Assembly: GCA_001805695.1 (NCBI GenBank)
Contig: MHGT01000032.1
Coordinates: 1-37,488, forward strand
DNA: 37,488 nucleotides
Direction of reading: 5' to 3'
Origin: Omnitrophica WOR_2 bacterium RIFCSPHIGHO2_02_FULL_67_20
GTDB lineage: Bacteria; Omnitrophota; Gorgyraeia; Aquiviventales; Aquiviventaceae
Shown: piece after piece, positions 13,109 to 14,475 of the stretch
How the letters are laid out: each line of letters starts with the position of its first letter
How positions within the stretch are numbered: the first letter of the stretch is position 1
Position numbers and translations under genes: made by a program
Notes under the pieces: model-generated
Told to the model about the DNA's origin: nothing
Seen by the model: the letters and a program-made list of their open reading frames with translations, nothing else
The model's database searches: none

Positions 13109-14347
13109 ATGAGGCGGGTTGTGGTGACAGGATTGGGTGCCGTGACGCCGGTGGGGAACGACGTCCCCGCCATGTGGGCGGCGCTCCTGGCCGGCAAAAG
13201 CGGTGTCGGCCCGATTCAGAGCTTCGACGCCTCCGCCTTCGAGTCCCGCATCGCCGCTGAGGTCAAGGGCTTCGACCCCGCGTCGTACATCAGCCCGAAG
13301 GAGATCAGGCGCACCGAGCGGTTCACGCAGCTGGCCATCGCGGCGGCAACGCAGGCGGTCCGGCAATCCGGCGTCAGCATCGAGCGCGAGGACCCGTTCC
13401 GCTGCGGCGTCATCATCGGCTCCGGGATGGGGAGCATGCACCTCATCGAGGAGCAGCACAGCGTCTACCTGGCCAAGGGGCCGAAGAAGCTCACCCCCTT
13501 CATGATCCCGATGCTCATCTGCAACATGGCGCCGGGCCACGTCGCCATGAACCTCGGTTTCAAGGGCCCCAACTTCTGCACGACGACCGCCTGCGCCTCC
13601 GGCGCCCACGGAGTGGGCGAGGCGTTCCGCATCATCCAGCGGGGGGCGGCCGACGTGATGCTCGGCGGCGGCACGGAGAGCTGTGTGAGCCCGATGGCGG
13701 TGGGCGGCTTCTGCGCGCTCATGGCGCTCTCCCGCCGCAACGGCGAGCCCGCCACAGCCAGCCGTCCCTTCGATCGGGAGCGCGACGGCTTCGTCATCGG
13801 CGAGGGCGCCGGCGTCCTGGTCCTGGAAGAGCTGGAGCACGCGAAGAAGCGCGGGGCCGCGATCCTCGCCGAGATGGCGGGCTACGGGCTCACCGCGGAC
13901 GCCTACCATATGACCGCACCCGACCCGGAGGGAACCGGGGCCGCCAAGGCGATGGCGCTGGCGCTGGAAGATGCCCGGATGCGGCCCGAGGACGTCACCT
14001 ACCTCAACGCCCACGGCACCTCGACCGAGCTCAACGACAAGATTGAAACGCTGGCGATCAAGAAGACCTTCGGCCCGGCCGCCAAGACGGTGGCGGTTTC
14101 TTCCACGAAATCCATGACCGGCCACCTGATCGGCGCCGCGGGCGGTGTGGAGGCGGTCATCTCGGTCCTCGCCATCACCGACGGCGTCATGCCCCCCACC
14201 ATCAACTACGAGCACCCGGACCCCGAGTGCGACCTCGACTACGTCCCCAATCACGCCCGGCGCGCCGCGGTCAAGGCGGTGCTCTCGAACTCGCTGGGGT
14301 TTGGGGGACATAACGCGACGGTGATTTTTAGGAAGTTTCACGGCTGA
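13109..14347 (+). CDS. fabF: Beta-ketoacyl-ACP synthase II
   Basis: RRVVVTGLGAVTPVG, TTTACASGAHGV, NAHGTSTELND, KSMTGHLIGAAG. Canonical fabG-acpP-fabF order. Confidence 0.95.
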   Translation: MRRVVVTGLGAVTPVGNDVPAMWAALLAGKSGVGPIQSFDASAFESRIAAEVKGFDPASYISPKEIRRTERFTQLAIAAATQAVRQSGVSIEREDPFRCGVIIGSGMGSMHLIEEQHSVYLAKGPKKLTPFMIPMLICNMAPGHVAMNLGFKGPNFCTTTACASGAHGVGEAFRIIQRGAADVMLGGGTESCVSPMAVGGFCALMALSRRNGEPATASRPFDRERDGFVIGEGAGVLVLEELEHAKKRGAAILAEMAGYGLTADAYHMTAPDPEGTGAAKAMALALEDARMRPEDVTYLNAHGTSTELNDKIETLAIKKTFGPAAKTVAVSSTKSMTGHLIGAAGGVEAVISVLAITDGVMPPTINYEHPDPECDLDYVPNHARRAAVKAVLSNSLGFGGHNATVIFRKFHG

Positions 14348-14357
14348 TCGGCGGCCA

Positions 14358-14435
14358 TCCCACCACCTATCGGTTCGCCAACGGCGAGCCGCAACGCGGC
14401 TGGTCGCTATTCAGCGACTCCGATAGGTGGTGGGA
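14358..14435. repeat. 78-bp palindromic element with perfect 16-bp terminal inverted repeats (TCCCACCACCTATCGG / CCGATAGGTGGTGGGA)
   Basis: Arms at 14358-14373 and 14420-14435. The outer 11 nt are shared with the element at 22017-22126. Confidence 0.8.
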
Positions 14436-14436
14436 C

Positions 14437-14475
14437 CATAACGCCACCGTGCTCTTCAAAGCCTTCCGCGGCTGA
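14437..14475 (+). pseudogene. Displaced relic of the fabF 3' end (HNATVLFKAFRG*)
   Basis: This 39-nt segment aligns codon for codon with the live fabF end at 14309-14347 (HNATVIFRKFHG*), with 27 of 39 nt identical. The relic uses GC-rich codons; the live copy uses AT-rich ones. Confidence 0.7.

Follow-up and report, generated by a model that had tools for sequence, protein, structure and literature searches.

We analysed a 37,488-nucleotide stretch of DNA (positions 1 to 37,488, forward strand, of contig MHGT01000032.1 in assembly GCA_001805695.1; hereafter "the window") from Omnitrophica WOR_2 bacterium RIFCSPHIGHO2_02_FULL_67_20, a high-GC member of Candidatus Omnitrophota, in which the gene fabF, encoding β-ketoacyl-acyl carrier protein synthase (KAS) II, has two versions of its 3' end with a small palindromic element beside them. 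The fabF open reading frame (ORF) is intact, and its product scores 636 bits against the TIGR03150 fabF profile (cut-off 494), covering profile positions 1-407 of 407. A preliminary description of this DNA, made from the letters of the window alone, had noted the doubled end and the palindrome, and its positions and counts were confirmed on the window sequence: the last 13 fabF codons (copy 1, 14309-14347) read HNATVIFRKFHG and then a stop, the downstream copy (copy 2, 14437-14475) reads HNATVLFKAFRG and then a stop, the two are identical at 27 of 39 nt, and the 16-bp arms (14358-14373 and 14420-14435) are perfect complements. The same description asked that the similarity be measured against background. 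When copy 2 was scored against all 74,899 39-mers of the window, both strands included, copy 1 was its best match (27 matches); the runner-up had 24 and the mean was 10.3 (standard deviation 2.8). The likeness of the two fabF ends exceeds chance.

The palindrome had been placed between the two ends, but closer inspection shows that it interrupts the displaced one, as follows: A 3-bp direct repeat, CCA, brackets the hairpin, and excision of the hairpin with one CCA joins TCGGCGGCCA to TAAC...TGA, restoring TCGGCGGCCATAAC...TGA. The restored native end reads FGGHNATVLFKAFRG and then a stop, the very C-terminus of the closest hairpin-free relative (P0004), and it shares 42 of 47 nt with the native end of L081, a relative whose fabF has no hairpin. 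The homology of copy 2 thus continues 10 nt leftward across the hairpin (14348-14357), and the hairpin-free duplication has a period of 47 nt. Once the hairpin is taken away, the copies stand in exact tandem: 0 nt separate the substitute stop codon from the displaced copy. The non-native stretch, which we call the patch, begins upstream of 14309, at 14297 (GGG TTT GGG GGA), and the total insert of 128-142 bp consists of a MITE (miniature inverted-repeat transposable element, below) and 17 codons. The hairpin and its duplication measure 81 bp and contain no stop in the displaced frame, and the fold of the hairpin is stronger than background (z = -9.5 and -7.6). Rfam returned for it a chance microRNA match alone (19 bits, where the gathering score is 137 bits; E = 0.66), so a known structured RNA family was excluded. 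Table 1 lists the features.

Table 1. Features at the fabF 3' end and related features of the window (coordinates are those of the window)
Feature	Coordinates	Strand	Basis or detail
fabF (β-ketoacyl-acyl carrier protein synthase II), intact 412-codon ORF	13109..14347	+	ORF list, NCBIfam TIGR03150
Replacement end ("patch")	14297..14347	+	GGG TTT GGG GGA CAT AAC GCG ACG GTG ATT TTT AGG AAG TTT CAC GGC TGA, read as GFGGHNATVIFRKFHG and stop
Left stub of displaced native end, TCGGCGGCCA	14348..14357	+	Last 3 nt are the left target-duplication copy
78-bp hairpin MITE	14358..14435		11-nt tips TCCCACCACCT/AGGTGGTGGGA, 16-bp closing stem, three mini-hairpins
Right target-duplication copy, CCA	14436..14438	+	Minus-strand target ATGG
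Displaced native fabF end, TAAC...GGCTGA, now untranslated	14439..14475	+	Joins the stub to give the native reading
Second family member, 110 bp (22017-22126)	22014..22129 with TGA duplication		Shared 11-nt tips (TCCCACCACCT)
Candidate cleavage sequences in fabF			Native GGCGGCCATAAC, recoded GGGGGACATAAC

The structure therefore holds two ends, but which of them is the original? The preliminary description took the GC-rich end to be native and the AT-rich end to be a substitute, and the fabF 3' ends of relatives bear this out. Four hairpin-free relatives (L081, L086, L087 and L089; FabF identity 82-92%) have one GC-rich end each, beginning CTC GGC TTC GGC GGC CAY AAC, and not an AT-rich one; the C-terminus of P0004 (FabF identity 92%) is exactly HNATVLFKAFRG; and the stub TCGGCGGCCA equals the native (T)TCGGCGGCCA of L081 and L086. 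As judged from these alignments, the GC-rich downstream end is the ancestral one. Both of the tests by which the preliminary description said it could be refuted thus support its observation.

The patch, on the other hand, is written in codons that the gene body avoids. Its GC content at third codon positions is 0.62 vs 0.93 in the fabF body, it uses TTT for phenylalanine three times vs 0 of 13 in the body (where TTC occurs 13 times), it also uses ATT, AGG and GGA, and it scores below 376 of 380 windows of the body. Its peptide is a normal variant of the clade; for example, VIFRKFHG resembles VIFRKFRG, the natural end of P0048. The codon usage of the patch is foreign, and codons and amino acids together suggest that it derives from the fabF of another lineage. 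A 209-nt contig from metagenomic run X9, aligned to window positions 14283-14320, reads TCGAACTCGCTGGGGTTTGGGGGACATAACGCGACG and then ATCGCCTGCGCACGGCTGAAGAGGTAG; it contains the first 26 nt of the patch inside a 38-nt match with 3 differences, and its tail differs. Because the 26-nt string stands there before a different tail, it exists naturally elsewhere, and by its translation this contig resembles another ketoacyl-synthase gene end and could represent a donor lineage. The patch also lacks the ATGG target, since GGA CAT gives ATGT on the minus strand, and the recoded GGA CAT could shield the working fabF copy from more insertion or cutting. Two other sources of the patch were considered and rejected. 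A second KAS gene lies in the window at 1436-2872, but gene conversion from it is contradicted by its different ending (GFGGKNSALVVKKYEA) and by the finding that the patch string GGGTTTGGGGGACATAACGCGAC is unique within the window. A diversity-generating retroelement fits poorly with the 12 differences between the copies, only 2 or 4 of which (depending on the template) fall at adenines, and no reverse-transcriptase-like ORF was found near the fabF end among the ORFs of the window.

That the AT-rich end travels with the palindrome, as had been proposed, can be seen in other lineages. L084, from another aquifer, has a fabF that over codons 1-396 is 92.4% identical to that of the window in nucleotides, with 17% of synonymous sites different and a synonymous divergence (dS) of 0.19; it lies at least as near to hairpin-free L081 as to the window. 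The window and L084 are identical over the 152 nt of 14297-14448, which comprise the patch, the stub, the hairpin and 13 nt beyond, and past 14448 L084 has its own displaced end (CTCCTC vs GTGCTC in the window). About 110 of the 152 shared positions should be free to vary, and 0 differences are found vs about 19 expected. On these distances the 152-nt identity is incompatible with vertical descent unless the whole block is very strongly constrained, and such strong constraint is argued against by the variable interiors of the hairpin family (below). The patch stretch 14297-14347 is likewise identical in L084 and L085, and in run X9 one contig repeats the L084 pattern and another is an empty native site.

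A third, diverged cassette is present in L173 (fabF 77% identical, dS 0.88), with an 81-nt hairpin of the same shape. Its substitute end is TTG GGG TTT GGG GGA CAT AAC GCG ACA GTG GTG TTC CGC CAG TTC ACC GGC TGA, its stub has decayed (...TCGGTGGACA) and the displaced end is its own, CCACCGTCGTCTTCGCCGCGTTCCGCGGCTAA. Its patch opens with the same 26 nt as the window's patch, and these are atypical in L173 too (in the gene body TTG accounts for 0 of 32 leucine codons and TTT for 1 of 12 phenylalanine codons). The hairpin-free lineages all retain GGC TTC GGC GGC, so they never had the patch, and the carriers are therefore scattered among non-carriers. By these sequence comparisons the patch, the 10-nt stub and the hairpin behave as one cassette that has been shared laterally. 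We did not retain the L173 flank mismatch (ACA/CCA) as proof of two source molecules, as point decay of the stub fits it equally well.

Two further observations concern the surroundings of these fabF genes. In L085, where fabF has 99.7% identity to that of the window, a transposase gene of the IS30 family (HTH_38 and rve domains; 631-1700) with 18-bp inverted ends lies just upstream of fabF and adjoins a repeated GATAAAGCAGATT motif, and the contig diverges from the window 11 nt past the displaced end; from its sequence this looks like strain-level rearrangement near fabF. A further kind of short repeat (GAT..GCAGATTG..CTGATTAC..GATA) was noted: in the window it is found upstream of fabF (13063-13100), in L084 (1540-1561) and L085 (3160-3200) downstream of the displaced end.

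The hairpin belongs to a large family. The 16-nt arm pattern has 5 matches in the window vs 0.25 expected, and a metagenome scan with both tips brought up at least 119 loci, whose elements measure 63-122 bp. The following counts refer to the 116 distinct copies among the matches listed by that scan. A perfect 3-bp repeat flanks 92 of them and an imperfect one the remaining 24; the target duplication is TGA/TCA in 72 (53 of those in ATGA), CCA/TGG in 12 (11 of those in ATGG) and TAA/TTA in 4. By its flanks the fabF insertion is an ordinary ATGG-type event of this family, on the minus strand. Interiors vary from copy to copy, but the shape is constant: a closing stem of 12-17 bp and two or three mini-hairpins with 3-4-nt loops. 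A sibling of the fabF hairpin (86% interior identity, in L139/L156) has unrelated flanks and lies at an ATGG that resembles a gene start. Because near-identical interiors sit at unrelated sites, the family is truly mobile, and we conclude that it is a large set of miniature transposons of groundwater Omnitrophota. The preliminary description had offered a miniature element as one of two options, and that option stands: the fabF hairpin has terminal inverted repeats, its own target duplication, copies at unrelated sites and no coding capacity, and an apparent autonomous partner with the same ends is the 323-bp element of L090 described below.

Many copies of 75-87 nt are divisible by three and lie in frame inside real genes. 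Hosts confirmed with Pfam encode TsaD, MoeA, MobA-like, transglutaminase-like and radical-SAM proteins, and a ComEC-like ORF, named by eye, also hosts an in-frame copy. For example, elements at L131 1762-1839 and L132 592-669 occupy the same codon of orthologous transglutaminase-like genes, and their interiors are 96% identical vs 72-82% for their flanks, a second instance of an element much better conserved than the gene around it. The second member in the window (Table 1) sits in the ATGA overlap of a pilM/N-like ORF (20574-22016) and the next gene; it preserves the upstream TGA stop, the downstream ATG is rebuilt using the element's last A, and AGGTGG in its right tip may serve as a ribosome-binding site. 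In the L147 region (8083-8169) a MobA-like gene has an intact hairpin where it starts, plus a degenerate second copy (APPPDLGPKG...AGGGV) within its conserved RMG-DK motif, and the adjoining MoeA gene has a third copy, in frame. At L129 (from 1099), L190 (from 11884) and L192 (from 4576) the start of another copy directly follows the element (TCA then TCCCACCACCT or TCCTACCACCT), and at L133 (from 3987) an element is followed by the start of another copy (TGA then TCCCCCCACCT); by their sequences these doublets are tandem or nested insertions that used the rebuilt target.

What might move such elements? The preliminary description suggested looking for a cognate integrase or transposase, and when long elements sharing the family tips were looked for among other contigs, a candidate enzyme of a different kind was found. 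Positions 2404-2726 of L090 hold a 323-bp element with the same tips, flanked by ATGA on the left and TGA on the right, and with a single ORF of about 110 codons that starts at the target's ATG, translates the left tip as MIPPP and the right tip as EVVG, and stops at the duplicated TGA. Its domain is GIY-YIG (Pfam PF01541, E = 2.6e-13). This ORF has 44 homologues of about 95-113 residues, of which about 27 begin (M/V)(I/T)PPP from the left tip (the rest are called from an internal Met) and nearly all end EVVG/EVGG or a close variant; because they start and end in this way, translation takes in the tips themselves. Among solved structures, the uncharacterised UPF0213 proteins 1zg2 and 1ywl come nearest. 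On sequence evidence, full-length members of the family measure about 323 bp and are each a single GIY-YIG nuclease gene that spans the element from one tip to the other, and this nuclease is a candidate enzyme for the hairpins. It was found in full-length relatives on other contigs and is neither an integrase nor a classical transposase. In L144 a different tiny element (3136-3441, minus strand), bracketed by CCCTTGACACGGGGC inverted repeats and with a 102-codon GIY-YIG ORF (Pfam E = 8e-15), lies directly 3' of a relative's fabF stop, and a TCCCACCACCT hairpin follows about 430 nt downstream of that stop, past the GIY-YIG element, at the ATGA of the next gene.

The fabF case is not alone. When the flanks of about 120 elements among the matches listed were screened for duplicated peptides, two loci stood out, L158 with a score of 58 and fabF with 42 (background 23.7 +/- 6). 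In L158 the hairpin divides an exbB/tolQ gene at the border of codon 11 (GTG) and codon 12 (ATG). What is left upstream is the native start, ATG TGG CAC TGG TTT CTG AAG GGC GGA CCG GTG (MWHWFLKGGPV), and a substitute start 3' of the hairpin, ATG TGG CAG TGG TTT GTC AAA GGT GGG CCA GTG (MWQWFVKGGPV), is fused to the gene; both N-termini are natural variants in relatives. To the right of the hairpin stands GGGA followed by TGATGTGG, as expected of a harmless insertion in a stop/start overlap, and the left flank is, from its sequence, the gene of the recipient itself, severed at a TGA within it. ExbB homologues that start MYPLL (L209, L210) were considered as bare insertions and rejected, as they are without hairpin and reflect gene-calling differences.

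We consider it fairly probable that the fabF structure is a self-rescuing cassette of miniature size, spreading laterally through recombination, and that its hairpin is a non-autonomous MITE of the tiny GIY-YIG elements. Its history would run as follows. As the flanks show, a family hairpin entered a CCAT that lies 13 codons ahead of the fabF stop and made its 3-bp duplication there. The conserved GFGG motif lies near the catalytic site in solved KAS enzymes. A bare insertion would add 27 in-frame codons after GFGG, and carriers would last only where an intact end was supplied. A 51-nt tract of foreign codons with its own stop was then presumably joined directly upstream, most likely from another lineage's fabF through one homologous and one illegitimate or offset junction. 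The finished cassette would then recombine into the fabF genes of other lineages, with the gene body as left arm and the recipient's own end as right arm, and the recipient's native end would stay behind as displaced, untranslated DNA. The breaks were perhaps made by the family nuclease at the ATGG target. The stop of the transferred tract at the cassette border and the greater likeness of elements at orthologous sites than of their flanks fit break-induced repair at the target, and plain recombination after DNA uptake may give the same pattern.

Several points weigh against this account or parts of it. A donor with a hairpin just outside fabF was not found among the loci examined, and no nuclease gene was found within the window. 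The stub and matched CCA show insertion into a native-type fabF, so the patch must have been added in a separate step, and the junction GGCTGA/TCGG is without clear microhomology. The 3-bp duplication suits transposition better than classical homing, and the second KAS gene of the window means that fabF may be non-essential. Finally, the lack of differences between the L084 and window cassettes could partly reflect constraint on the hairpin and not recent transfer. Integration of a mini-circle of the Campbell type was considered and rejected, as the hairpin lies within copy 2 and the stretch upstream of CATAAC has been replaced too.

The most probable of the rival readings is a cleave-and-rescue homing unit. 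A GIY-YIG nuclease acting in trans would cut the native motif GGCGGCCAT, and only repair from a cassette with the cut-resistant recoded end GGGGGACAT would survive, driving the cassette through related species and leaving foreign coding micro-tracts behind. The patch does abolish the ATGG target, the recoded 26 nt have been kept in two cassettes despite the strong GC codon bias, the transferred tract stops right at the cassette borders, and the L131/L132 elements outdo their flanks in identity; but the exbB substitute retains a GTGA target, 3-bp duplications are not expected from homing, and plain homologous recombination after DNA uptake accounts for the same data. We regard such cleave-and-rescue homing, and the spread it would bring about, as unlikely, if still worth keeping in mind. 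A local origin, in which nothing would have come from outside or moved as a unit, is somewhat less probable again. If 47 nt had been duplicated in place by slippage, the copies had diverged and a hairpin had later landed by chance in the dead copy, the hairpin-free copies would be exactly tandem, as they are, and the hairpin would have its own clean target duplication inside copy 2, as it does. However, the copy under selection would then be the divergent one with non-native codons, while the untranslated copy matches the real end of relatives; the same block is identical in a lineage at dS 0.19 that is no closer than a hairpin-free one, the same atypical 26 nt are present in L173, and with the exbB case chance would have had to place 2 of about 116 listed hairpins in targets of about 40 nt.

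The other option of the preliminary description, that the insert is the scar of a much larger element, has fared badly. A phage or island at the fabF 3' end would have brought the substitute end and then lost its body, leaving attL and attR side by side, and the logic of gene-end replacement is indeed that of e14 in icd and Rac in ttcA (PMC6379469). However, the displaced copy follows directly on the substitute stop codon, with no DNA left over, and the same minimal structure is present in three lineages; the palindrome stands by itself as a MITE, having a target duplication of its own and numerous copies in other places; the junctions CTG/GGG (left) and GGGA/CCA (right) share no common att core; there is no integrase fragment and no ORF in the insert; and among the fabF loci examined no full-length island lies between the fabF ends. 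We think a scar very improbable. An assembly chimera, made from two strains that differ in their fabF ends, is scarcely credible. The window comes from a metagenome-type assembly and related strains co-occur in samples, but Logan contigs from at least five runs and several studies cross the whole structure with 0-1 differences, and two independent ENA contigs from other assemblies show the same fabF structure; the spanning contigs come from several assemblers. Because independent contigs span it, the structure is real DNA and not an assembly artefact.

How does the cassette compare with known systems? In e14 and phage 21 in icd, and in Rac in ttcA, the insert supplies a substitute terminus and the displaced native one is left as a pseudo-end (PMC6379469). 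Like e14 in icd, the fabF cassette gives a substitute end and a displaced native end and leaves the target gene intact, but inserts of the e14 type are prophages of kilobase size, carry a tyrosine integrase and have an identical att core, whereas the fabF insert is about 1/100 of their size and has neither feature. Rickettsia palindromic elements are described as short palindromic repeats that lie in frame and stop-free in unrelated housekeeping genes (PMC10969869, citing Ogata 2000 and 2002), and the present family, in frame and stop-free in unrelated protein genes, is like them in behaviour as so described. The Rickettsia elements are not reported with a substitute gene end, and the present family mostly targets ATGA start/stop junctions.

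Genes for the GIY-YIG single-strand nuclease Ssn are bracketed by inverted repeats (NTS/SRM) that are also found alone many times per genome (PMC11893778), and the present nuclease is, like Ssn, a small single-domain GIY-YIG protein, of about 95-110 residues. The SRM consensus HGTCWY...RNCYNB, however, was matched by 0 of the 125 elements tested and has no match in the L090 element, and because this motif is absent we do not file the family under Ssn. Unlike in Ssn, the repeats here form part of the ORF, which starts on the ATG and stops on the TGA of the target, and for Ssn mobility and target duplications are not described (PMC11893778). With MITEs such as Correia/NEMIS, ERIC and MITEAba12 the family shares terminal inverted repeats, target duplication, high copy number, lack of coding and effects on neighbouring genes; it differs in its putative partner (a GIY-YIG nuclease vs a DDE transposase), in its ATGR target and in the two cases with a substitute terminus. 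Homing endonuclease genes with co-conversion likewise spread laterally to the same site in diverged genomes and carry adjoining donor sequence, but there the flank is replaced and there is no target duplication, whereas the fabF cassette keeps the recipient's flank as a displaced copy. A few literature searches gave no description of a MITE tied to a substitute gene terminus or of a tip-to-tip GIY-YIG family with an ATGR target, and nothing on GIY-YIG start-codon elements or Omnitrophota repeats.

The practical consequence for annotation is that duplicated gene termini beside such hairpins are real features and not assembly errors. More broadly, selfish DNA of very small size can settle in an important gene and leave it intact, and gene-end replacement, known for kilobase prophages and islands, appears here in an insert of about 140 bp, at a gene end (fabF) and at a gene start (exbB), across lineages. 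If our interpretation is correct, the class of self-rescuing mobile DNA would reach down to miniature size, short foreign tracts would have a route into conserved genes of uncultured bacteria, and such cassettes would be linked to single-gene GIY-YIG elements with a start-codon-like (ATGR) target.

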